Of a DNA stretch of 64,000 nt, positions 2,223 to 58,506 are shown one piece after another. The stretch's first letter is position 1. Each line of letters begins with the position of its first letter. The position numbers and the translations under genes are program-made. The stretch spans positions 15,072-79,071 of the forward strand of contig JBFLYO010000003.1 of the NCBI GenBank assembly GCA_040756745.1, read 5' to 3'. The notes under the pieces were generated by a model, which searched no databases, was not told the DNA's origin, and saw only the letters and a list, made by a program, of their open reading frames with translations. This DNA comes from Bacteroidota bacterium. GTDB lineage: Bacteria > Bacteroidota > Ignavibacteria > UBA10030 > UBA6906.

Positions 2223-4700
2223 ATGGCGAGGAATTCGCTCACGCTGGTCATACTCCTGATCTCCTCACCCCTTCTCGGCGTGGCGGAACCCTCACCGAAG
2301 AAAGCCATTGCGGTCCGGACGCTCTCGCCTCCCGTTATTGACGGGCTGGTGGATGACCCGCAGTGGGCGACCGCCCCGCCGCTCCTCGATTTCACTCAGT
2401 TTGACCCTGTCGAAGGGGTCCTGCCGACCGAACTGACATCGGTGCGGCTCCTCTACGACAACAGCGCCCTGTACGTCGGGGTCATCTGTTACGATGCTCA
2501 TCCGGAACAGATCGTCCGCCAACTCACGCGCAGAGACCGTAGCTCGGAGGCGGACAGGTTCAGCGTGATGATCGACTCGTACTTTGACCGGCAGACGGCG
2601 TTCGTATTTGTCACGAACGTGTCCGGGGTGCAGAGCGACGGCGTGCTCTCACAGGACGGCGCGCTCTACGATCTGAGCTGGGACGCGGTCTGGACAGTAC
2701 GGACACGAGTGTATCGCGACGGCTGGTCGGCGGAATTCGAAATTCCCTACAACGCGATCAGGTTTGCGGAACAGGCGAGAGGCGTGTACACCTGGGGGAT
2801 CAACTTCCGGCGCTACATCAGCCGCAAGAAGGAAACCGACGAATGGGTCATGGTACCGCGGCGCGAGATGCTGCAGATCTCCCGCTGGGGGACCGTGGAG
2901 GGGATCAAGGACATTACACCGCCGTTGCATCTGGAACTCCTTCCGTATCTCTCCGGCACCGCATCGTACCAGACGGCATATCCCGGGCGCCCATGGAATT
3001 CATCGTACAGCTGGCAGGGAGGTGTTGATCTGAAATACGGCATCGAGAGGAATTTCACCGTCGATGCAACGATCAATCCCGACTTCGGACAGGTGGAAGT
3101 GGATCAGTCGGTGCTCAATCTCACGGTCTTTGAAACACGGTTCCCCGAGAAGCGGCCCTTCTTTGTTGAAGGGGCCCAGCTCTTCACGTTCGGATCCGCC
3201 GTGGATAACACGCCGCTCTCGGTCTTCTTTTCGCGGCGCGTCGGGAAACGTCCCTCCGGCAGTCCGTTCGTCGTCGAACCGCCGGGCGGCAGCATCGAAG
3301 AAAATCCGCAGGTGACGACAATCTTTGGGGCCGTGAAGTTATCCGGGCGATCCCATTCCGGCTTCTCCATGGGACTGCTGAGCGCGGCGACGGATGAGGA
3401 GAAGGCGGTGCTCGTTGACTCTGCCGGTGCGCGCACCGGCACCGTTACGGAGCCGCGGGCCTCGTACAATGTCGTACGGCTGAAGCAGGATTTCGACGGC
3501 GGCTCGTGGCTCGGCGCGATCGGAACGCTGGCATCACGCAGAACGATGAACCCTGCATTCGCCGGCGGATTGGATTGGAACATCCGGCTGGATGGCGGCA
3601 CCTACACGATCGACGGGTACGGTGCGGCGGCGCATTCTTCGACGGAACGGGTTCTGCGCGACGGTTCGTCGGGGCGCGACGGCGGGGCGGGCCGTGTGCT
3701 GTTCTCCCGCATTGCGGCGGAGCACTGGCTGTACACCGGATCGTTTGATTTCTATACGCGCTATTTCAATCTGAACGACCTGGGCTTCTTCGCCCAGCCG
3801 CATGACTACGGCGGATACACGCAGCTGCTCTACCGGGAGAATTTCGGAACCGGTCTCTTCCGGCGCTATGCGATCTCGGCCGTCCCGGAAGCGCGATGGA
3901 ACTGGGACGGCGTGTTGACGAACGCTTTGTCGGACCTGTCGTTCACCGGCGAGTTCATGAATTTCTGGCGGCTGGTGCTGGTCTACGACCTTGCGTTCCG
4001 CGCCTACGACGATGAAGAGCGGGGGATCATCGGCCTCTACCGGCGGCCACTCAGCCACACCTTCCGCACGCAGGTCAAAACCGACGAGCGCAGGAATATT
4101 TCTGCCACACTCACGCTGTCGTATGCATTTGATGAACGGCGGAAGCAGTCATGGAGCGGATCGCTCGGGCTCACCATCCGGCCGGTGTCATGGATTGAAT
4201 TGAGCCCGTCTCTGTTATGGACGCAAACGCGGGGCGAAGAGGCCTGGGCATTCCCGGCGGGGAACGTGTTCGATCCGGCGGTAAGCGCAACGCCCTTCAG
4301 CGTGTTCGGCGACAGGGATCTTGATCAGGTGGACGTGGAACTCCGGGGGATTGTCACATTCTCGAGGACGCTCTCGCTACAGTTCTTCTCGCAAATCCTG
4401 CTCGCCCGCGGCACATACCTGGACTACAGGCGATTCGATGGGCCACGAGCGATCCCGTATGACTTTGCCTCGTCTGCCGGGTACATTAGTCCCAATTTCA
4501 ATGAAGCGGTCTTCAACGCAAACGTTCTTCTCCGGTGGGAGTACCTGCCGGGGAGCACGCTGTATCTGGTCTGGACGCAGGGGAGGTTCGGCGATTCAGG
4601 CAATCCTGCGACAGGATTTGAGCGGCGGCTGCGCGATACGTTTGCGCTTCCGCACGATGACGCGCTGCTGCTGAAGATCAGCTACTGGTTCCCGCTCTGA
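2223..4700 (+). CDS. secreted DUF5916-type protein with N-terminal carbohydrate-binding family 9-like domain and large C-terminal beta-rich domain
   Basis: It has a signal peptide. The N-terminal region (DDPQWATAPP...LLYDNSALYVGVICYD) resembles CBM9-like domains of Bacteroidota DUF5916 proteins. The ORF is 825 aa with a clean start. Confidence 0.55.
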   Translation: MARNSLTLVILLISSPLLGVAEPSPKKAIAVRTLSPPVIDGLVDDPQWATAPPLLDFTQFDPVEGVLPTELTSVRLLYDNSALYVGVICYDAHPEQIVRQLTRRDRSSEADRFSVMIDSYFDRQTAFVFVTNVSGVQSDGVLSQDGALYDLSWDAVWTVRTRVYRDGWSAEFEIPYNAIRFAEQARGVYTWGINFRRYISRKKETDEWVMVPRREMLQISRWGTVEGIKDITPPLHLELLPYLSGTASYQTAYPGRPWNSSYSWQGGVDLKYGIERNFTVDATINPDFGQVEVDQSVLNLTVFETRFPEKRPFFVEGAQLFTFGSAVDNTPLSVFFSRRVGKRPSGSPFVVEPPGGSIEENPQVTTIFGAVKLSGRSHSGFSMGLLSAATDEEKAVLVDSAGARTGTVTEPRASYNVVRLKQDFDGGSWLGAIGTLASRRTMNPAFAGGLDWNIRLDGGTYTIDGYGAAAHSSTERVLRDGSSGRDGGAGRVLFSRIAAEHWLYTGSFDFYTRYFNLNDLGFFAQPHDYGGYTQLLYRENFGTGLFRRYAISAVPEARWNWDGVLTNALSDLSFTGEFMNFWRLVLVYDLAFRAYDDEERGIIGLYRRPLSHTFRTQVKTDERRNISATLTLSYAFDERRKQSWSGSLGLTIRPVSWIELSPSLLWTQTRGEEAWAFPAGNVFDPAVSATPFSVFGDRDLDQVDVELRGIVTFSRTLSLQFFSQILLARGTYLDYRRFDGPRAIPYDFASSAGYISPNFNEAVFNANVLLRWEYLPGSTLYLVWTQGRFGDSGNPATGFERRLRDTFALPHDDALLLKISYWFPL

Positions 4701-5608
4701 CCGGCAACCCGATCGACGAAGAACTCCAGGACCCGCCGCCAGTATTCCACCCCCCCCACGTCGGCAATGTCGTTGTGCCGCGCCCCCTGTATGAGCCAGA
4801 GCTCCTTTGGCTCATTCGCGTTGGCAAAGACCGTTTCCGAATACGTGTACCTGATCAGGTTGTCAGCGGTTCCGTGGATAATGAAGATCGGAACACGAAC
4901 GTCTTTCACGGCTTCCAGTGGCGACACGGCGTTCGCCTTGAAGTGCGCGAGATGCTCCGACCGCTTGATGACGATGTTCCGGAGGTAATGCCAGGGCAGC
5001 TTGATCATCCGTCGCTGGTAATCGTCGAAGATGGTACGTAGTGTAGCGAAACCGCTCTCGGCGACGAGCGCGACAACGCGATGATCGATCGCGGCGACCT
5101 GGATTGCCACTGCGGCCCCCATGGAGGTTCCGAAGAGGCCAACCCGTCCCGTGCGCAGATCCTTTCTGTCGAGCAGCCAGGAGATCGCCGTCGTTGCGTC
5201 GTGCTTCTCGTAGAAGCCGTAGGTGCAGTACTTCCCCCCACTGTCACCGTGGCGCCGTGAATCGTAGAGGAAGACATTGAATCCAAGGTCGTGGAGCTGC
5301 TTTGCCATCGGCAGACCGACGATCTTGCACTCGCTGACGCCGTGGAGATACACAATGGTGCCCCGGGGCTCTGCCGGTGCCTGGATGAACCAGCAGCTCA
5401 ATGCAATGCCCTCGGGGGTCTTCAACGTGACCTCTTCAAATGGAAGGCCGAGGTCCGAAGGGTGGAAGACGGAGGTGAACCTGCGGTAATACTCAATGGT
5501 CCTGCGGTGAGGCTGGAGCAGCATCCCCGGGCCAATCACCAGCAGCACGGCGGACACGAAGACCATGAAGAGCACCGCCCATCCGAGCAGGAGCAGGAAG
5601 ACGGTCAT
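4682..5608 (-). CDS. membrane-anchored alpha/beta hydrolase
   Basis: It has the GxSxG nucleophile elbow (GTSMGAA) and an HGTADN acid/His region, with an N-terminal TM helix. The ORF track extends to 5785. I prefer the ATG at 5608 (MTVFLLLLGW...), which sits immediately before the TM segment; alternatives are 5647 and 5785. Confidence 0.65.
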   Translation of the reverse strand: MTVFLLLLGWAVLFMVFVSAVLLVIGPGMLLQPHRRTIEYYRRFTSVFHPSDLGLPFEEVTLKTPEGIALSCWFIQAPAEPRGTIVYLHGVSECKIVGLPMAKQLHDLGFNVFLYDSRRHGDSGGKYCTYGFYEKHDATTAISWLLDRKDLRTGRVGLFGTSMGAAVAIQVAAIDHRVVALVAESGFATLRTIFDDYQRRMIKLPWHYLRNIVIKRSEHLAHFKANAVSPLEAVKDVRVPIFIIHGTADNLIRYTYSETVFANANEPKELWLIQGARHNDIADVGGVEYWRRVLEFFVDRVAGQSGNQ

Positions 5609-13670: not shown

Positions 13671-13700
13671 CCGCCGGAAGCACTCTCCGGCGGTTTTTTT
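13671..13700 (+). terminator. Rho-independent terminator after atpG
   Basis: Stem CCGCCGGA/TCCGGCGG with a 7-nt loop, followed by TTTTTTTGTGG. Confidence 0.7.
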
Positions 13701-13813
13701 GTGGTTGCGGCGCTCCTTGGGGATTGTTGCATTTCGACAGAGTTTTGCGTAGCTTTTAAATCCCTTGCGGGTTTCGCGGCGCTGTAAGCCATTGTCTCCA
13801 GAGAGGTTGAGGG

Positions 13814-25430: not shown

Positions 25431-25617
25431 CGTTGTAAACACAGGAAGGGCGCTGTGCTCTTAAATGAACGGTCGGTCGATAGGTGTCCAAAAATATGCA
25501 CATGGGAGAGCGCAACTCCTTCTCCCTCCTCTATTTTCAGGGCATTCTGATGGCACCCTTCTTGCAAACAAATTGGATACACCCACCGGACGGTCTCTCA
25601 ATGGAGGAGAGAACGAT

Positions 25618-26481
25618 ATGAACGCCAGATATGCAGCGATAGTCCTTGTTGCGATGGGAGCCCTCGGCGCCATCGCGCTCACAGGTTGTTACACTCAGTT
25701 CGGCACTCTTACCGAAGACAAGGAGCCCGGGGTCACGTCAGAGCCGGAGGAGTACGGGGAAGGAGTGACAGACGAAGAGTATGCCGAGGCACGGCAGCGG
25801 TTTTACTATGATTCGTATTATCCTGCTATCGATGTCGGGTTCTCGTTTGGGTGGGGCTATCCCTGGTACGGCTACCATCGTCCATGGTACGGCTACGGAT
25901 TTGGCTCCCCCTGGTATGGATACGGGTATCCCTGGTATTACGACCCGTTCTATTATGGCAATTACTATGGAGTCTATTCTCCATGGTACGTCGGGCCCTT
26001 CTACCGCGGCGGCTATTATTCTGATAGGGCACCGAGTGTGAACACGACCCGGAGGATCGGATCGACGAGGACGCTCGGCGGGACGCGCGGTTCCACGGAT
26101 TATCGGGGGACCTCCACCGAGTTCGCTCCGCTTCCGACGGGGAAGAGATCGAGTGGCACGGTGACCACGGGCTCATCCGCGCCGACGTCGGGCGGTCGGT
26201 CAGGGGTGAACACGGGCCGCAGGGGGACGGCGGGGGAGCGGCGGGATGGATCGCAGGGGCGCACGGTCAGCACTCCCCCAAAGGGAGGTTCGCGTGAGCA
26301 AGCGGCTCCTGCACCTTCTTCCGATACGCGACGAGGAAGTTCGGGTGGAAGCAGGACGCCGTCGTACACTCCACCACCTTCTTCTCCTCCTCCCTCAAGC
26401 GCTCCTTCTTCGGGGGGCAGCCGTGGCGGTGAAAGTCGCGGCGGAAGCGGTGGAGGCAACAGGGGCGGCGGCCGGCGGTAA
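25618..26481 (+). CDS. lipoprotein with Tyr/Trp/Gly-rich aromatic repeat block (PWYGY-type) and Ser/Gly/Arg/Pro-rich disordered tail
   Basis: RBS GGAGG before the ATG at 25618 and lipobox LTGC. The aromatic block is GWGYPWYGYHRPWYGYGFGSPWYGYGYPWYYDPFYYGNYYGVYSPWYVGPFY. The C-terminus is RGG/SGG-rich. Confidence 0.55.
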   Translation: MNARYAAIVLVAMGALGAIALTGCYTQFGTLTEDKEPGVTSEPEEYGEGVTDEEYAEARQRFYYDSYYPAIDVGFSFGWGYPWYGYHRPWYGYGFGSPWYGYGYPWYYDPFYYGNYYGVYSPWYVGPFYRGGYYSDRAPSVNTTRRIGSTRTLGGTRGSTDYRGTSTEFAPLPTGKRSSGTVTTGSSAPTSGGRSGVNTGRRGTAGERRDGSQGRTVSTPPKGGSREQAAPAPSSDTRRGSSGGSRTPSYTPPPSSPPPSSAPSSGGSRGGESRGGSGGGNRGGGRR

Positions 26482-26520
26482 TGCATCAGTGCACCCTCTG
26501 CTCTTGACACGAGGACGACA

Positions 26521-31191: not shown

Positions 31192-31194
31192 GCG

Positions 31195-31335
31195 GTAGGC
31201 AGAAGTCAGTAGGCAGAAATCAGAAGTCAGTAGGCAGAAATCAGAAGTCAGAAAGAAGCCCTAAACCTTAACCTTAATCTCAATCTCGATCTCAATCTCA
31301 ATCTCACTCTCGTTCTCAATGCCCCTCAAACGCTC
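31195..31335. repeat. Intergenic repeat block, family 1: GTAGGCAGAA in three copies (21-bp tandem unit GTCAGTAGGCAGAAATCAGAA), then CCTTAACCTTAA, then ATCTCAATCTCGATCTCAATCTCAATCTC
   Basis: Read directly from the sequence between the cobB stop and the pyk start. The same motifs recur at 32776-32884, 42440-42560, 43042-43100, 43340-43400, 47729-47815 and 47905-48003. Confidence 0.8.
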
Positions 31336-31344
31336 CCACCTGCT

Positions 31345-32781
31345 ATGACTGCGCAACCGAGCAGAACCCGGATTGTATGCACGCTTGGGCCTGCGTCGAG
31401 CAGCGTCGAGACGCTGACGGCGCTCATCGGGGCCGGGATGGACGTTGTGCGGCTGAACTTCTCGCACGGCACGCACGAGGAACACCGGGAGGCGCTGAGA
31501 AACGTCCGGGAAGCCGTGCGCGTGACCGGTCATGAAGTGGCGGTCCTCCAGGACCTCCAGGGACCGAAGATCAGAATCGGCGAACTGGAGGTGCCGTCGA
31601 TCGAGCTCCGTCAGGGAGAGGAATTCACGATCACGACGGACCCGGTCGTTGGCGGACGGGGGCGGGTCTCCACGACATATGCGGGGCTTCCTCACGATGT
31701 CCATCCGGGTGCGGATATCTTGCTCGATGATGGCCGGCTTCGGCTCCGGGTTCTCCGCGTTTGGGGAAATGATGTGGAGTGCGAGGTGATTGTCGGGGGA
31801 ACGCTCAGCTCCCACAAAGGGATAAACCTCCCGGGAGTAGCGGTCAGCGCGCCATCGTTCACGGACAAAGACCTGGATGACCTTGCGTTCGGGCTTGCCA
31901 GCGAGGTCGACTATCTCGCGCTCTCGTTCGTCAGGACGGCGGAAGACATCCGTCTCCTCCGTGCAGCAGCAGCACAGGCACCCCAGCATGCACGTATGCC
32001 GGTGATTGCGAAGATCGAAAAACCGCAGGCGGTAGCCAACATCGATGAGATCATTGCAGAGGCGGACGGAATCATGATTGCCCGCGGCGATCTGGGTGTA
32101 GAGCTTCCGCCGGAGGACGTCCCGGTTCTCCAGAAGATGATCATCAGGCGGTGCAACAACGCCGGCAAACCGGTGATCATCGCGACACAGATGTTGGAAT
32201 CCATGATTGCGAGCCCGATGCCGACACGGGCAGAGGCCAGCGACGTCGCCAATGCCGTGGTCGACGGGGGCGATGCGGTCATGCTGAGCGGCGAGACGTC
32301 GGTGGGAAAGTACCCCATTGACGCCGTTCGGATCATGGAGCGGATCATCCGGAAGGTCGAATCGGAACGGCTGGTGCGCCCCAGAATCCCCGCTGAACCC
32401 CGGTCGAGCGTAACAGACCGGCACGACGCCCTCGGCCGTTCGGCGTGTGTGCTTGCGGAACAGATGAGAGCGGCGGCGATCGTCACGGTGACCAACTCAG
32501 GCCAAACGGCGAGAGTGCTGGCGCGCTATAGGCCTGACCCGCAGATCATCGCCATCACCGACAGTCCAAGAACACTCCGGATGCTGAACATTGTCTGGGG
32601 GGTACGCGGGTTGCTGGTGGAGGGACTCGATGAAGACTCCGATCATGCGCTCGCCAGGGTGCAGGAACGGCTCGTGGCATCGGGTCTGGTGAAGCGGGGA
32701 GAATACATCGTGTTGCTTGCGGGGCAGCCGTTCTTCGCGAGGGGGGGGACGAATTTTATCAAGGTGGAAAAGATAGGTTAA
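31345..32781 (+). CDS. pyk: pyruvate kinase
   Basis: Canonical N-terminus (TRIVCTLGPASSSVETL...GMDVVRLNFSHG) and the MLSGETSVGKYP motif. Confidence 0.95.
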   Translation: MTAQPSRTRIVCTLGPASSSVETLTALIGAGMDVVRLNFSHGTHEEHREALRNVREAVRVTGHEVAVLQDLQGPKIRIGELEVPSIELRQGEEFTITTDPVVGGRGRVSTTYAGLPHDVHPGADILLDDGRLRLRVLRVWGNDVECEVIVGGTLSSHKGINLPGVAVSAPSFTDKDLDDLAFGLASEVDYLALSFVRTAEDIRLLRAAAAQAPQHARMPVIAKIEKPQAVANIDEIIAEADGIMIARGDLGVELPPEDVPVLQKMIIRRCNNAGKPVIIATQMLESMIASPMPTRAEASDVANAVVDGGDAVMLSGETSVGKYPIDAVRIMERIIRKVESERLVRPRIPAEPRSSVTDRHDALGRSACVLAEQMRAAAIVTVTNSGQTARVLARYRPDPQIIAITDSPRTLRMLNIVWGVRGLLVEGLDEDSDHALARVQERLVASGLVKRGEYIVLLAGQPFFARGGTNFIKVEKIG

Positions 32782-32884
32782 GGATAAGGTTAAGGTCAAG
32801 GTCGGTTGTCGCTTGAGGAGTGTGGATTGACAATTGTGGATTCCTCCCCTTAACCTTAACCTGCTCCATCCCTTAACCTTCTCA
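32776..32884. repeat. Family 1 inverted-repeat element (GGTTAAGGATAAGGTTAAGGTCAAGGTC ... CCCCTTAACCTTAACC ... CCCTTAACCTT) spanning the convergent pyk and STAS gene ends. Probable bidirectional terminator
   Basis: The arms are reverse-complementary AAGGTTAAGG/CCTTAACCTT runs about 40 bp apart. They overlap the stop codons of both flanking genes. Confidence 0.7.
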
Positions 32885-38783: not shown

Positions 38784-38847
38784 CAGCGCTAAGGTAGGAA
38801 AACGGGACGTAAAGAAAAAGAGGAGAGAGAGGAGAAAGAATTTCGGA

Positions 38848-38950
38848 AGGCGGAGTGCGGATTGCGGAACGGAAGTTCAGATGTGCGATTTGTGATTTCG
38901 GATGTGCCTTTACTTCATTCCGCAATCCGCGCTCCGCAATCCGCAATATA
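38848..38950. repeat. Family 2 palindromic element (GGCGGAGTGCGGATTGCGGAACGGAAG ... CATTCCGCAATCCGCGCTCCGCAATCCGCAATA) between the hybrid kinase start and the hup stop
   Basis: Imperfect inverted repeat about 100 bp long built from TGCGGATTGCGGA/TCCGCAATCCGCA units. Related copies are at 48455-48482 and 56692-56782. Confidence 0.7.
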
Positions 38951-42433: not shown

Positions 42434-42440
42434 AGAATAC

Positions 42441-42560
42441 CGCAGAGACGCAGAGTGATAGCCTGAACTCGAGCCCTGGATTCAGATTGAGGGGATGGGC
42501 CCTCACCCTCACCTCAAACTCAATCTTGATCTCAATCTGAATCTTCTCTGCGTCTCTGCG
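42441..42560. repeat. Nested palindromic family 1 element upstream of the DUF2147 gene
   Basis: Outer arms CCGCAGAGACGCAGAG / CTCTGCGTCTCTGCGCCTCTGCGG. Inner arms GATTCAGATTGAGGGG / CTCAAACTCAATCTTGATCTCAATCTGAATC. Confidence 0.7.
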
Positions 42561-42585
42561 CCTCTGCGGCAAAAATAACAAAGGG

Positions 42586-43041
42586 GTGTCTATGCGCTTT
42601 CTGCTGGTCCTTTCGCTCCGGATCCTGGGTTTAACGTTTGCCCGGGATGATCCTCGTGCCGGCGATGCGATTCTTGGCCAATGGCTCACGGCCGAGTCTG
42701 AATCACGGATCGAGATCTACAAATGCGACAGCATCACCTACTGCGGCCGGATTGTCTGGCTGCGCGACCCACTGAAGGAGGGGAAGCCGGTGGTGGACGA
42801 TAAGAACCCGGAGGAATCATTACGGAACCGGCCGGTGATGGGGCTGGAGCTGCTGAGGGGCTTCACCTACGACGGGGACGGCGTTTGGGCGGGCGGGAAG
42901 ATTTACGATCCGAAGAGCGGGAATGATTACAGTGCGAAGATGCGGCTGACCAGTGATTCAACGCTGAACCTTCGCGGGTATGTACTCATTCCGCTCTTTG
43001 GCAGGACTGAGGGGTGGGTGCGGGTGAAGAAAGCAGATTGA
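42586..43041 (+). CDS. DUF2147 domain-containing secreted protein
   Basis: Signal peptide. The pattern GQWLTAE...IEIYKCDSITYCGRIVWL...GGKIYDPKSGNDYSAKMRL...LNLRGY matches DUF2147. Confidence 0.7.
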   Translation: MSMRFLLVLSLRILGLTFARDDPRAGDAILGQWLTAESESRIEIYKCDSITYCGRIVWLRDPLKEGKPVVDDKNPEESLRNRPVMGLELLRGFTYDGDGVWAGGKIYDPKSGNDYSAKMRLTSDSTLNLRGYVLIPLFGRTEGWVRVKKAD

Positions 43042-43110
43042 GATTTAGATTGAGATTAAGATTAAGGTTAAGGGGTGAGGCAGGTTAAGGTTAAGGGGAT
43101 CAAGCTCGTC
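43042..43110. repeat. Family 1 repeat block (GATTGAGATTTAGATTGAGATTAAGATTAAGGTTAAGGGG...GGTTAAGGTTAAGGGG) immediately after the DUF2147 stop
   Basis: Direct reading of the sequence. It is followed by a perfect hairpin GGATCCGCC-ATCGA-GGCGGATCC at 43147-43169. Confidence 0.75.
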
Positions 43111-43440
43111 GGTCATTGCGAGCGCTCTTTGCGAAGTCCGCCTCTTGGATCCGCCATCGAGGCGGATCCCGGGGGGCGGACAATCTCTGGTTAGGCAGAC
43201 AGAGGTTGCTTCGTCGCTGAGAAACGCTCCTCGGTGACCGGAAAGTGAGACGGAATGTCTGGAGCCTGAACAAGTGGCCTCGGGCAGCGAAGCTATTTTT
43301 CTCCTTGACATTCTTTTTTATAGACGCAATGACAAAGTGCTCTGTGGTTATCCTCTCAACCATACTCTCAATCTTGATCTCAATCTCAACCGTAACCCTC
43401 GTTCCCCTCAGTCCGCTCCTTGTTCTGCACTGTTCCCACC

Positions 43441-44853
43441 TCACTTCTTCCGAAACGTCACCGCCCGCTCTGATGCGGTCTCCAGTTCCATGAGGAGTTG
43501 AACCAATTTGTTGTAGTCCTCAGGGGGGATAACCTGTGATGTGAGATCCAGCGTAGCCGTTAGGCGCACGTCGTCTCCATCCCGCTTGCAAGCAATTGAG
43601 CCTCGCCCACCTGCAAAACCGCGCATGGTGGTGTCTCTCGGAGACTCAGTTACCACGTACCCCTCTGGATGATGAATACGCCATTCGATCGTCATCGTGT
43701 ACGGTTCGGGAAACACGACGTCGTTCGTACGTGACGGGGCGAATAGCTCATCCCGCAGCTGCCGCAGCAGGTGATTGGCAGGTCGAACACTGACGTATTT
43801 TTCGATGGTGGTCACCGCTGCCCTTGAAGTTCCCTTCGCGGCAATACTGACAAGGCCCTCCTCAAAAAACGGCGAGTAGCGAAGATCGCCCGCGTTTTCA
43901 AGACATTTGCCCAACACTGCTCGCTCGAAAAACGACTCCAGGTCCTTTCCCTTCAGCGCATAACCCCCGTTGCGCCACTCTTCAACCGGAGCACCGCGTC
44001 CGCTCGTTGCCATGCTGTCGAGGACGGCGAACCGGTCGCTGAACCTGAGGTCATGTGACTCTCGGATCCAAGCCTCGCCTGCCCTTGCGGCAGGCGTGGT
44101 CACCGATTGACACCCGTCGTTGCTGATCACCATGGCGGTGATTCCCTTCAGGAACCATGGGGTGCTATAACGGTTCGGGATCGCCCTGTCGAAGTCATAC
44201 AGCCGTTCGACTCCCCCAATTCTTACCTGCACGCCGATCCTGTCAAACCATCGGACCGTCGGCACGCTTGTTTCATACACCCCCTTCCGCCTGTCGCGGA
44301 TCCACCCTGCCTTCGCGTCCACCTCCCATTGGCGTAGGATCTTGTAGAAGATCGCTGAAAGATCAGACGCATCGCCGCTCCCGTCATCGAAGACCTTATC
44401 CAGATCATCGACTAGCGGGTAGAGACTGTTCACAGGGTCAAGCACGATCGCATGTCGCAAGGCAGTATAAAGACTGTCAACGCGCGCAAAGGTAACCGGC
44501 GATCCTAATGGAGCAAGGCCCAGCTGCCTGATACGGGAGTCTTTGACGTGACCCTTGTCGAGGTTCTCCTCCCAGTATGTCTTCGCGAGCGAGGACCAGT
44601 CCGTAGAACCACGAAACGCCAGATCGGACACAAATGCCGTCATCATGGAGAGTTCTTCAAATGGCGGTGCGTACGGTTCGGCGGGGATCGCATTGAGATT
44701 TCTCACGCTCCAGAACCGTGTGTCTCCCGATCCGAGCGTCGTTGCGATTTCAGAGATCTTCGGCTCGCCGATGCGGTCGGCAGGGAAGCTGAATACCCGG
44801 ATTTCATCACGCGCCTGACCGGTAATCGCGAGATTCGAAAAGAGCACGGGCAT
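43441..44853 (-). CDS. DUF3858-like / degenerate transglutaminase-like C-terminal module protein (B2). It is in-frame with and 2 codons downstream of the B1 stop
   Basis: 470 aa with no signal peptide. The C-terminal region resembles the DUF3858 end of Bacteroidota DUF3857-TGase-DUF3858 proteins. It may be the C-terminal part of a gene interrupted by a TAG codon. Confidence 0.5.
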   Translation of the reverse strand: MPVLFSNLAITGQARDEIRVFSFPADRIGEPKISEIATTLGSGDTRFWSVRNLNAIPAEPYAPPFEELSMMTAFVSDLAFRGSTDWSSLAKTYWEENLDKGHVKDSRIRQLGLAPLGSPVTFARVDSLYTALRHAIVLDPVNSLYPLVDDLDKVFDDGSGDASDLSAIFYKILRQWEVDAKAGWIRDRRKGVYETSVPTVRWFDRIGVQVRIGGVERLYDFDRAIPNRYSTPWFLKGITAMVISNDGCQSVTTPAARAGEAWIRESHDLRFSDRFAVLDSMATSGRGAPVEEWRNGGYALKGKDLESFFERAVLGKCLENAGDLRYSPFFEEGLVSIAAKGTSRAAVTTIEKYVSVRPANHLLRQLRDELFAPSRTNDVVFPEPYTMTIEWRIHHPEGYVVTESPRDTTMRGFAGGRGSIACKRDGDDVRLTATLDLTSQVIPPEDYNKLVQLLMELETASERAVTFRKK

Positions 44854-47250: not shown

Positions 47251-47572
47251 GCCGTCGCTCCTGAGTACGGGGAAACTTGTTATGGAAAAAACGGACTGCT
47301 CCCGCAGTGGATACCACTGCCGAGCATGTGGAGGCCGGGACCACACGTTCTCGCGCCGGGGGAGTTACAGCAAATGGCGCGTCAGGTTGCTACGAATCAA
47401 ATGGGAGAGCAGAATGCTGCAGCAGAATTACAGCGTCCGGCTTGCCGGGGGGTCGGACGCCGCAAAGACAACTCGCCGCAGAAAAACCACAGTAGAAGAT
47501 ACACCGCTCAGCAATTACTGTCAAGACGGAGCGGGATTATTCTGTCGATGTCACCCATGTCGGGATTCTTCA

Positions 47573-47606
47573 TAAAGAAAAAGGGCATCGGTTGTTGCGA
47601 TGCCCA
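47573..47606 (-). terminator. Rho-independent terminator on the minus strand (downstream of tRNA-Pro)
   Basis: The plus strand reads AAAGAAAAAGGGCATCGGTTGTTGCGATGCCC. On the minus strand this is an 8-bp GC stem (GGGCATCG/CGATGCCC) followed by TTTTTCTTT. Confidence 0.65.
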
Positions 47607-47728
47607 CGAGAAGAGATTTTGGTCGAAAGGATCAGGTCAAGGGGAGATTGCAGGTTGAGATCAAGACTCAGATCTTCGGATCTCCGTTGGGGCAGAATAT
47701 ATTCTGCGCTTACAGAGCCGATCTCTCC

Positions 47729-47815
47729 CTACTGACTTCTGCCTACTCCCCGCTTCTCCGTTCGCCCTACCTCCCTACCCCATACCTCCTTACCCCCTAC
47801 CTCTTTCTTCTTTAC
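47729..47815. repeat. Family 1 repeat block on the opposite strand: reverse complement of GTAGGCAGAAGTCAGTAG, followed by (CCTAC[C])n runs
   Basis: CTACTGACTTCTGCCTAC (47729-47746) is the exact reverse complement of the 18-mer GTAGGCAGAAGTCAGTAG at 31195-31212. It is followed by CCCTACCTCCCTACCCCATACCTCCTTACCCCCTACCTC. Confidence 0.75.
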
Positions 47816-47822
47816 TGCTCTG

Positions 47823-47896
47823 TCGGAGCGGGGGGATTTGAACCCCCGACCCCCTGAACCCCATTCAGGTGCGCTACCGGGCTGCGCTACGCTCCG
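47823..47896 (-). tRNA. tRNA-Pro (anticodon GGG)
   Basis: The reverse complement folds as a cloverleaf. The acceptor stem is CGGAGCG/CGCTCCG, the D-stem GCGC/GCGC, the anticodon stem CCTGA/TCAGG with loop ATGGGGT (U33, G37), and the T-arm GGGGG-TTCAAAT-CCCCC. The discriminator is A and CCA is not encoded. Confidence 0.85.
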
Positions 47897-47964
47897 AAAT
47901 ATAAAGTTGAGGATAAGGATAAGGTTAAGGGGACAAGTCGCGACGCCACATCATTCCTTCTTTT

Positions 47965-48003
47965 CCTTAACCTTAACCTTAACCTTAACCTTAACCTTAA
48001 CCT
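47965..48003. repeat. (CCTTAA)6 hexanucleotide microsatellite (family 1) overlapping the 3' end of the merR-like gene
   Basis: CCTTAACCTTAACCTTAACCTTAACCTTAACCTTAACCT is read directly. It is preceded by GAGGATAAGGATAAGGTTAAGGGG at 47909-47932. Confidence 0.9.
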
Positions 48004-48380
48004 ATCTTCTTCAACAACTCCTGCAAAAACTGCTTCGTCTCCTCCACGTCCGCGCGGAGCTGCTCGTCTTTGATTTTTGCGCGGGACTTCGGCGCGTCGA
48101 TGAGCTCGAGCTGCTCCCCCGTGTCCCCCTCCGGCGTGTAACTCTTCAGCACCTGCTTTGCCCCCTCAATCGTGTACCGCTCGTCCCGCAGCAGCTTCTT
48201 GATATAGAGGATCAGCTTAATGTCCCGGTTTGTGTAAATCCGGTTCCCCGCCCTGTTCTTCTGGGGCTTCAGATGCTCAAACTCCGACTCCCAGTACCGC
48301 AGCACGTACTGCTCGAGATCGGTGATCTTCGCCACCTCGCTGATCGAGTAATACAGCTTCTTGATGCCAAGCGATTTCAT
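47997..48380 (-). CDS. MerR family transcriptional regulator
   Basis: N-terminal MerR HTH (YSISEVAKITDLEQYVLRYWESEF) and a C-terminal coiled coil. Confidence 0.75.
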   Translation of the reverse strand: MKSLGIKKLYYSISEVAKITDLEQYVLRYWESEFEHLKPQKNRAGNRIYTNRDIKLILYIKKLLRDERYTIEGAKQVLKSYTPEGDTGEQLELIDAPKSRAKIKDEQLRADVEETKQFLQELLKKIG

Positions 48381-48482
48381 CGCGCGCTAGAGCCCAATAT
48401 ACCACGTCAAGCTACGAAAAACATGTCTGACTTGCAACCGACGCCGGCCGACAGTTCCGCAATTCGCATTCCGCAATCCGCA

Positions 48483-49040
48483 TTATTTTCTCGTCCTGCT
48501 CTTCGACAGCTTGACATCGATCTCCTTCATGCGCTTCAGCTCCTGCTGTACCTGCTGCAGGTCGGCTTCAAGATCCTGCAGGCGCCGCATGTCGGTCATG
48601 ATGGTGCCGCTCTGCCTCTTGGCGAGAGTCGTCAGGCTGTCGACCGAAGCGGTCTTCCGGGCAAGACTCTCCTGCAGCGTCCTCACCCGGCGAAGGAGGG
48701 AGACGAACATCTGGAAATGCTCACGGTCCGCTTTCTTCATCGGGAGATTGAGACACGCCGTGAACCAGTAGAGGGCGAGACTGTCGTTTCGCGCCGGGTT
48801 GAACTCGCTCGCATAGAGCAGGGCAGCCTTCCGCGCGGCAACCGGGAAGGCCGTTGATTGCGGAAATTCTGTCGCCACCACGACATAATGCTCGGCCGCA
48901 CCCTTGAGCGCCATCTCCTGCTCAAGGCTGTCGGCGAGCCGCATGTGATAGTTGACCAGATTCGCCGTCCGGCTTCCTTCGGTCCCCCCGCAGCCGGCAA
49001 GAACGCTCACGAGCAGCACGCCTGCGATCCATCGGTTCAT
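48483..49040 (-). CDS. lipoprotein with coiled-coil C-terminus, function unknown
   Basis: Signal peptide with lipobox LAGC. The first gene... (see finding) it is the last gene of a minus-strand operon. Confidence 0.55.
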   Translation of the reverse strand: MNRWIAGVLLVSVLAGCGGTEGSRTANLVNYHMRLADSLEQEMALKGAAEHYVVVATEFPQSTAFPVAARKAALLYASEFNPARNDSLALYWFTACLNLPMKKADREHFQMFVSLLRRVRTLQESLARKTASVDSLTTLAKRQSGTIMTDMRRLQDLEADLQQVQQELKRMKEIDVKLSKSRTRK

Positions 49041-56691: not shown

Positions 56692-56782
56692 GTGAAGCAC
56701 ATTCAATTCGGATTGCGGATTGCGAAGTGCGGAATATTCCGCAATCCACACTCCGCAATCCGCAATGCTGAGATTGCTTCAC
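56692..56782. repeat. Family 2 palindromic element between the ECF sigma stop and the cyc2-like gene start
   Basis: Outer arms GTGAAGCA...TGCTTCAC. Inner imperfect palindrome CGGATTGCGGATTGCGAAGTGCGGAATATTCCGCAATCCACACTCCGCAATCCG. Confidence 0.75.
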
Positions 56783-58417: not shown

Positions 58418-58506
58418 TTCAGTCGGGGCTGAATATATTCAGCCCCGACTGAATCAGAAGTTGTCAATTGTCATTGCGGGGCCGGTGTGGGAGCACACCG
58501 GCCCCC
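58418..58506. terminator. two consecutive perfect hairpins after the cytochrome c gene (probable bidirectional terminator)
   Basis: The first is GATTCAGTCGGGGCTGAATAT/ATATTCAGCCCCGACTGAATC, a 19-bp perfect palindrome. The second is GGGGCCGGTGTG-GGAG-CACACCGGCCCC, followed by a T-rich tract. Confidence 0.6.

Follow-up and report, generated by a model that had tools for sequence, protein, structure and literature searches.

The perfect CCTTAA array that overlaps the end of a merR-like gene is probably one arm, recently expanded, of a hairpin some 105 nt long, itself one member of lineage-specific, dispersed families of 6-8-nt repeats that sit in the spacers between genes with a fixed polarity, purine-rich after stop codons and pyrimidine-rich before start codons. 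This reading draws on the 64-kb stretch of DNA analysed here, which we call the window, on the folding of its spacers and on a comparison with related loci.

Tandem Repeats Finder describes the array as (CCTTAA)6.5 at positions 47965-48003, with a period of 6, 6.5 copies and 100% matches; it is assigned to the minus strand, where it reads (GGUUAA)n in the sense of MerR and forms the 5' arm of the hairpin. The six-unit repeat picked out in an earlier, sequence-only reading is therefore real and perfect, although its interval was drawn too wide: the perfect array begins at 47965 and not at 47905, and the interval given for it also covers another array, the imperfect (AGGATA)3.5 at 47910-47930. 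It was also rightly called unusual. The 12-mer CCTTAACCTTAA (two units, with up to one mismatch) occurs 16 times in the window and not once in 100 shuffles.

The overlap with the 3' end of the merR-like gene is likewise borne out. The gene (47997-48380, minus strand) encodes a MerR-family regulator of 127 aa that ends in ...LLKKIG* (Pfam MerR_1, E=8.5e-20), and it shares 7 nt with the array, namely the stop codon TAA (47997-47999), the Gly codon before it (48000-48002) and a single base of the adjoining Ile codon. The array supplies this Gly codon and the stop codon and then five more in-frame TAA codons, giving QFLQELLKKIG*G*G*G*G*G*GKEGM as the minus-strand translation across it. Since every CCTTAA unit is GGT-TAA when read in frame with MerR, translation stops in the first unit, and the protein is identical however many units, from one upwards, the array has. 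Slippage is plausible in a run of six perfect units, as had been supposed, but the proposal that it could alter the MerR C-terminus fails on the TAA that stands in frame in every unit; as the reading frame shows, gain or loss of units would be silent for MerR and would alter only the length and register of the stem. On the other strand an ORF of 339 aa (47838-48857, plus strand), antisense to merR, runs across the array with the translation ...LTLTLTLTLT...; this is almost certainly not a real gene, though automated callers could annotate it.

The perfect array has its inverted partner in the imperfect one, (AGGATA)3.5 at 47910-47930. The partner arm as a whole (47902-47934, minus strand; TAAAGTTGAGGATAAGGATAAGGTTAAGGGG on the plus strand, CCCCUUAACCUUAUCCUUAUCCUCAAC on the sense strand) makes up the 3' arm of the hairpin, and its segment 47902-47930 (TAAAGTTGAGGATAAGGATAAGGTTAAGG) is 86-90% complementary to the perfect array in four registers (pairs I3, I4, I6 and I9), with a loop of about 30 nt (47935-47964, minus strand) between the two arms. 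Folded as MerR-sense RNA, the segment 47890-48015 forms a single long stem-loop of -39.9 kcal/mol with a z-score of -3.67, and none of 200 dinucleotide shuffles is as stable; the same hairpin as single-stranded DNA has a z-score of -3.9. The stem runs from the final merR codons to a point 10 nt short of the tRNA gene and so fills the whole 100-nt spacer. The perfect arm is longer than its degenerate partner by about 2-3 units, which fits a recent local expansion.

The gene on the far side of the spacer is an intact tRNA-Pro(GGG) (47822-47896, minus strand; ARAGORN, Rfam 62.7 bits), which lies downstream of merR on the same strand in an adjacency that is conserved across the clade. The array had been said to abut it directly; in fact 68 nt (47897-47964) lie between them, with the array on the 5' side of the tRNA. 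A consensus scan of 47300-48600 for intrinsic terminators makes no call at the spacer hairpin, which lacks the short GC-rich stem with a U-tract directly after it that defines this class: its stem is AU-rich and its U-tract weak, the tail after the stem being UCAACUUUAUAUUU. The only terminator called in that interval is a canonical-looking hairpin at 47583-47605 (minus strand; GGGCAUCG...CGAUGCCC followed by UUUUUCUUUA), with a GC stem and a U-tract, about 215 nt downstream of the tRNA, and this is likely to be the end of a merR-tRNA transcript. Rfam recognises only the tRNA, and the spacers match none of its known RNA families. A promoter for the tRNA within the spacer was also considered; when motifs of the Bacteroidota -33/-7 type were read by eye, only a poorly placed TATATTTC could be proposed, and it is unconvincing.

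The neighbourhood of merR and tRNA-Pro is widespread in relatives, where the spacer is usually 7-40 nt long and free of repeats. From a spacer that is in most relatives too short for a promoter, we infer that merR and tRNA-Pro are co-transcribed, in which case the hairpin would lie within their common transcript. RNase P, cutting at the 5' end of the tRNA, would then leave the hairpin at the 3' end of the merR mRNA. In enterobacteria and pseudomonads, REP/BIME sequences are short extragenic repeats that stand as inverted pairs at the 3' ends of genes, and their stem-loops, once transcribed, protect the upstream mRNA from 3'-5' decay. The repeats described here resemble them in forming inverted pairs at gene 3' ends, and mRNA protection is the mechanism that we would propose for the merR hairpin: if it is active at all, it may act as a 3'-end stabiliser of the REP type or as a weak attenuator rather than as a switch, or it may have no role. 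REP units are moved by RAYT transposases, and each is by itself an imperfect palindrome headed by a conserved GTAG, whereas each arm here is a tandem repeat that is not palindromic.

The merR array is one of many in the window. In its 31-57 kb part, at least 10 intergenic spacers hold motifs of five families, AAGGTT, GAGATT, TGCGGAT, GCAGAGAC and CAGAAGTCAGTAGG, with five loci for AAGGTT, four to five for GAGATT, three for TGCGGAT, two for CAGAAGTCAGTAGG and one for GCAGAGAC. Tandem Repeats Finder lists AT-rich arrays of period 6-8 at 31200-31320, 32775-32862, 38844-38947, 42513-42568, 43035-43096, 43366-43389, 47765-47803, 48455-48484 and 56709-56766, and all of them fall in spacers between ORFs. 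Within these 64 kb of one metagenome-assembled genome the arrays are confined to 31-57 kb, with none in 1-31 kb. The spacers of the first 31 kb are of the ordinary kind, with canonical terminators (for example at 13680-13715). One apparent spacer there, the 1.09 kb at 25431-26520 left open by a crude gene caller, holds a lipoprotein-like ORF with Gly/Tyr/Trp/Pro-rich repeats (PWYGY motifs) and a long low-complexity tail rich in Ser, Gly and Arg.

The closest counterpart of the merR hairpin is a second AAGGTT hairpin (32769-32880, pair I5) between the convergent genes for pyruvate kinase (pyk) and a STAS protein, in which a purine-rich array stands at each stop codon on the gene's own sense strand and the pyk stop codon lies within the first unit. 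On the other side of pyk, the 153-bp spacer that separates it from a SIR2 gene (31192-31320, plus strand) consists of repeats only, (CAGAAGTCAGTAGGCAGAAAT)2.5, (CCTTAA)2 and (AATCTC)7.5, and the SIR2 stop codon TAG falls within the first GTAGGC unit. The TGCGGAT family provides a hairpin of (TTGCGGA)n/(TCCGCAA)n heptamers at 38840-38947 (minus strand, pair I1; -53.2 kcal/mol, z -7.42), another of the (TTGCGGA)n family at 56704-56767 (plus strand, pair I2; z -5.05), which begins 13 nt after the stop codon of a sigma-70 family gene, and an unpaired array, (TGCGGAW)4, at 48455-48484 (minus strand), which follows with a gap of 0 nt on the stop codon of a 185-aa gene lying upstream of merR. A nested hairpin lies at 42440-42569 (plus strand, pairs I14 and I15; -60.8 kcal/mol, z -4.63); its outer stem consists of (GCAGAGAC)n, its inner one of (AGATTG)n/(CAATCT)n. 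Two further sites carry GAGATT-type units: a composite (AGATTG)n-(AGATTA)-(AGGTTA)n-AGGGG array at 43035-43099 (plus strand), unpaired and unstructured, which begins in the last codon and the stop codon of a DUF2147 gene, and (GAGATT)n on the sense strand at 43366-43389 (minus strand), about 50 nt past the stop codon of the minus-strand gene 43441-44853. Purine-rich simple repeats also follow the 3' end of the tRNA directly (47725-47803, minus strand; GGTAGG-type and GGAGTAGGCAGAAGTCAGTAGG), and the GGAGTAGGCAGAAGTCAGTAGG motif is found again at 31200-31253.

The largest direct-repeat families of the window, D1, D2, D5 and D6, all consist of these elements, and so do the longest inverted repeats (I1-I7 and I14-I15) in a scan of 30-58 kb for arms up to 200 nt apart. 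Copies at different sites have irregularities in common: the 31-nt D5 sequence ATTCCGCAATCCGCGCTCCGCAATCCGCAAT occurs in three copies with 84-100% identity, the heptamer sites at 48455-48484 and 56704-56767 belonging to this family; D2 links the partner arm of the merR hairpin (47907-47932) with 43050-43075 at 85% identity over 26 nt; and the composite junction (GAGATT)n-AAGGTTAAGG at 43052-43075 returns on the other strand at 31260-31290. Such shared irregularities would not be reproduced by independent slippage.

The arrays occur either singly and unpaired (four loci) or as convergent inverted pairs that form hairpins (five loci, with z-scores of -3.67, -2.01, -4.63, -7.42 and -5.05). The idea that every member of these families is a hairpin had to be given up: the four unpaired arrays fold no better than shuffles, or worse (z +0.6 to +2.2), and hairpin formation is thus not the common denominator of the families.

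On a gene map built from ORFs and GC3 and corrected by eye, 20 of the 22 arrays are intergenic. Thirteen of them, at -8 to +80 nt from the 3' end of the gene or tRNA that they follow, are rich in purines on its sense strand; the other seven lie ahead of the next gene or tRNA downstream and are rich in pyrimidines on the sense strand; the rule of purine after stop and pyrimidine before start holds for 20/20 intergenic arrays in 10 spacers, with zero exceptions. The stop codon lies within the first unit and recurs in frame in the genes for SIR2, pyruvate kinase, the DUF2147 protein and MerR, and in a fifth gene, the one of 185 aa, the array begins immediately past the stop codon.

For the comparison with relatives, MerR scans of genome and metagenome collections yielded 160 loci with 68-93% identity, from metagenome-assembled genomes of Ignavibacteriota/Bacteroidota and from metagenome contigs whose isolate names, where given, point to soils, fens and sediments; another 12 loci were reached through the closest homologues of proteins encoded nearby, for a total of 172. 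Look-ups of the exact proteins (MerR, ACPS and the 185-aa neighbour) found no second contig, the species being represented by one genome on record. In a homologue search the sole 100% match was the source genome itself, with the next relative 74% identical, and the best MerR identity in the scans of genome and metagenome contigs was 92-93%.

In these relatives the repeats are nearly absent. AAGGTT 14-mers, with up to 2 mismatches allowed, number 9 in the 64-kb window as against 1 in the 1.12 Mb of the 172 related loci, where the motif is about 150-fold rarer. A search of 1.05 Mb of the relatives' loci for perfect arrays of period 5-8 with at least 3 copies returned a single one, GC-rich, and no AT-rich one. 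The sequence-only reading would have taken an invariant repeat number in all related genomes, with no similar arrays elsewhere, as its refutation; the result matches neither of the outcomes expected, for no relative has an array at the merR-tRNA site and similar arrays are common in the window.

Four orthologous junctions show what has changed. Between merR and the tRNA, the spacer of 100 nt in the window stands against 18-40 nt in relatives, with 18-38 nt in loci L161 and L167; a sister lineage (L162-L165) has a different spacer of 91 nt that opens with a purine-rich CCGCAGAGCCGCAGAGAG, a motif of the GCAGAGAC family. SIR2 and pyk overlap in relatives by ATGA, as against the 153-nt spacer of repeats alone in the window, where the SIR2 tail is changed as well. 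Between pyk and STAS, relatives have a 59-nt spacer with an ordinary GC-rich hairpin and the window has the 100-nt AAGGTT hairpin. Between the 185-aa gene and merR, about 45 nt of heptamers are inserted, relative to the sister species, exactly at the stop codon, with the promoter-region sequence downstream conserved. At each of these four junctions the comparison of sequences shows the repeats to be insertions in the window's lineage.

The insertion at merR also touched the protein. MerR proteins of relatives end in ...KKLN*, ...KKLA*, ...KKLG* and the like (CTG AAC TGA in L161), and the ending ...KKIG* (ATA GGT TAA) is found only in the window's genome. Set against the KKLN*-type ends, the repeat-derived KKIG* shows that the cassette rewrote the end of MerR once, replacing its last two codons together with the stop codon (LN* to IG*). 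Pyruvate kinase ends in AAG ATA GGT TAA GG in the window and in ATC GGG TAA in L172. The notion that the shared KIG* marks both the MerR and the pyruvate kinase ends as overwritten proved half right: KIG* is ancestral in pyruvate kinase, where 33 of 120 homologues have it and the codons alone have changed, and new in MerR. One possibility is that the merR cassette was copied from the cassette at the end of pyk.

Candidate routes for the spread of such cassettes are copying or gene conversion between existing copies, followed by local slippage. A bolder version, which we regard as tentative and on balance doubtful, is that a spreading element of an undescribed kind, in the form of cassettes consisting entirely of 6-8-nt tandem repeats, has recently colonised this uncultured lineage of Bacteroidota, inserting precisely at the ends of genes and bringing their own stop codons. 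On that account the cassettes would overwrite last codons, as in MerR (LN* to IG*) and the SIR2 tail, would part genes that formerly overlapped, and would leave behind strand-polar hairpins or unstructured spacers. If it were true, the window would offer a tractable natural case of the birth and spread of repeats of the STRR or heptamer type.

A more conventional mobile element seems unlikely to us: a MITE, or a REP/BIME-like unit, whose terminal inverted repeats consist of simple repeats and which is moved by a transposase encoded elsewhere. Insertion relative to the sister species at four junctions, the irregular features shared by copies (D2, D5), the recurrence of arms with an AAGGTTAAGGGG terminus and the folding of inverted arms into significant hairpins would all suit such an element. 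It would not be expected, though, to vary freely in arm length and unit count, or to appear as single arms or as direct rather than inverted pairs, as several copies do (43056-43099 among them). Nor is its interior maintained, for the loop at 47935-47964 has no similarity to that of the second AAGGTT hairpin (32803-32847) and differs from it in length, and we see no target-site duplication flanking either the merR or the pyk/STAS hairpin.

We consider it improbable, too, that the arrays arose by independent local slippage from native sequence, that is, by neutral growth of microsatellites in AT-rich spacers without dispersal or function. The native end of pyruvate kinase in L172 (AAGATCGGGTAAGGG) is already unit-like, and the perfect 6.5 units at merR point to a recent local expansion; the ancestral end of merR (CTGAACTGA), by contrast, bears no resemblance to the unit. 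Each of five to six motifs returns at 2-5 sites, with order and irregularities shared, a 153-nt spacer made entirely of repeats parts genes that overlap in relatives, and a polarity as strict as the one described above is not expected from a neutral process.

Very little probability attaches to an artefact of assembly. The source is a single metagenome-assembled genome, and the short-read contigs of the sister species break nearby, though inside the tRNA. A 39-nt array is, however, shorter than a typical read, its flanks are unique, its context of ORF and tRNA is coherent, and related but non-identical arrays stand at many loci.

The same small chance is all that we would allow to the view that the array is the scar or attachment site of an integrative element targeting tRNA-Pro. 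Genes for tRNAs are common sites of integration, which had led the sequence-only reading to see a hotspot here, and in fact gene order beyond the 3' end of the tRNA is not the same in the window as in L167, and cassettes with a GIY-YIG nuclease sit in the same tRNA in some relatives. Integrases, however, usually use the 3' end of a tRNA, whereas the array lies 68 nt away on the 5' side; no att duplication was detected, the 3' 22-mer of the tRNA being unique in the 64-kb window at up to 3 mismatches; of the two genes on the 3' side one has no Pfam match and the other is transglutaminase-like, neither being an integrase; and identical arrays occur at sites free of tRNA genes. Least credible of all is a contingency locus in which slipped-strand mispairing, by adding or removing units, varies the C-terminus of MerR or toggles merR on and off, for although perfect tandem arrays are prone to slippage and six perfect units do overlap the end of the merR ORF, a 6-nt unit with a TAA in frame in every copy cannot shift the frame, the array stands at the 3' end of the gene and not at its promoter, and arrays of the same families adjoin housekeeping genes such as those for pyruvate kinase and SIR2.

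The reading that we prefer, of dispersed and stop-anchored repeat families with a recently expanded arm at merR, has precedents. A literature search for hexanucleotide repeats in prokaryotes returned mostly eukaryotic matches. Rehm et al. 2015 (PMC4692102) described dispersed G-rich heptamers, (GGGAATC)n in Xanthomonas and GGGGA(C/T)T in Nostoc, which lie between genes, either alone or in convergent pairs able to form stem-loops. The G- or purine-rich strand is the sense strand where the heptamers lie within 50 bp of a stop codon or overlap it, and the antisense strand upstream of start codons; the repeats are not tied to phase-variable genes, their length differs between species, and in the two Xanthomonas species 90% of the repeats are flanked by the same ORFs (PMC4692102). 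The arrays of the window are like them in having tandem units of 6-7 nt at many intergenic sites, singly or as convergent pairs, beside ordinary metabolic genes rather than surface or phase-variable ones, and with the same placement and polarity at stops and starts. They differ in their AT-rich units (the GC content of CCTTAA is 33%, that of the genome about 60%), in the coexistence and concatenation of several unrelated motif families, and in their uncultured host of the Bacteroidota/Ignavibacteriota type, whose sister species are without the repeats, in contrast to the shared positions in Xanthomonas. The G3-4 tracts of a G-quadruplex are absent from CCTTAA/TTAAGG, AGATTG and TGCGGAT, all of which have G-runs of 2 at most, and three-tetrad G-quadruplexes are beyond the reach of such units.

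A second precedent is the cyanobacterial STRR, tandem units of about 7 bp in non-coding DNA that form hairpins between co-transcribed genes such as hupS-hupL and for which stabilisation of transcripts or coupling of translation has been proposed but not proven (PMC2670836). The repeats of the window share with STRR the short tandem units, their dispersal in non-coding DNA and their capacity for hairpins between genes; they differ in unit sequence and in phylum, and an anchoring at stop codons is not described for STRR in the text consulted (PMC2670836). Perfect, slippage-prone tandem repeats that touch coding sequence are also a mark of phase-variable contingency loci, from which the merR array is set apart by a unit length that is a multiple of three and by the in-frame stop in every unit. 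The repeats of the window belong with the Xanthomonas/Nostoc heptamers and STRR as dispersed repeats of one kind.

Several consequences follow for how the array is to be regarded. As a switch for the regulator it is irrelevant, since MerR cannot vary through it. Stop-anchored families of 6-7-nt units, known from Xanthomonas and from heterocystous cyanobacteria, are now seen in a third, unrelated phylum. That the same rules apply to AT-rich units that do not form G-quadruplexes, and that sister species lack the repeats at the same junctions, argues that the rules are not about G-quadruplexes. The repeat-free junctions of the sister species offer before-and-after material for studying how such repeats originate, and annotators should be aware that, where a repeat overlaps the stop codon of a gene, the final codons may be of the repeat's making.

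The tRNA-Pro gene itself has a separate history in the clade. In several relatives the tRNA-Pro next to merR is interrupted by small cassettes with a gene for a GIY-YIG nuclease of about 90 aa (L060 4396-5017 and L066 4391-4806; also L035, L051, L055, L070 and L079), just downstream of merR. In L060 the ORF lies at 4690-4965 (Pfam GIY-YIG, 6e-18). The 3' end of the cassette overlaps a fresh 5' half of the tRNA, so that an intact tRNA-Pro(GGG) follows it and tRNA pseudo-fragments stand upstream; L060 holds two cassettes in tandem, and the copy in L066 has an internal stop codon. The cassette looks like a homing-type element that would target tRNA-Pro; the window does not contain it. The four independent Logan assemblies of one sister species (L162-L165) end at the same base inside tRNA-Pro (GGTAGCGCACC), 121 nt after merR, and this identical break suggests a repeat or a polymorphic insertion at tRNA-Pro in the population.

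Finally, two GC-stem palindromes, GGGGCAGAATATATTCTGCGC at 47688-47708 and CAGTCGGGGCTGAATATATTCAGCCCCGACTG at 58420-58451, have a common 10-mer core, GAATATATTC (47695-47704 and 58431-58440), for which 0.02 occurrences are expected by chance; they may represent a second small family, of terminator-like hairpins.
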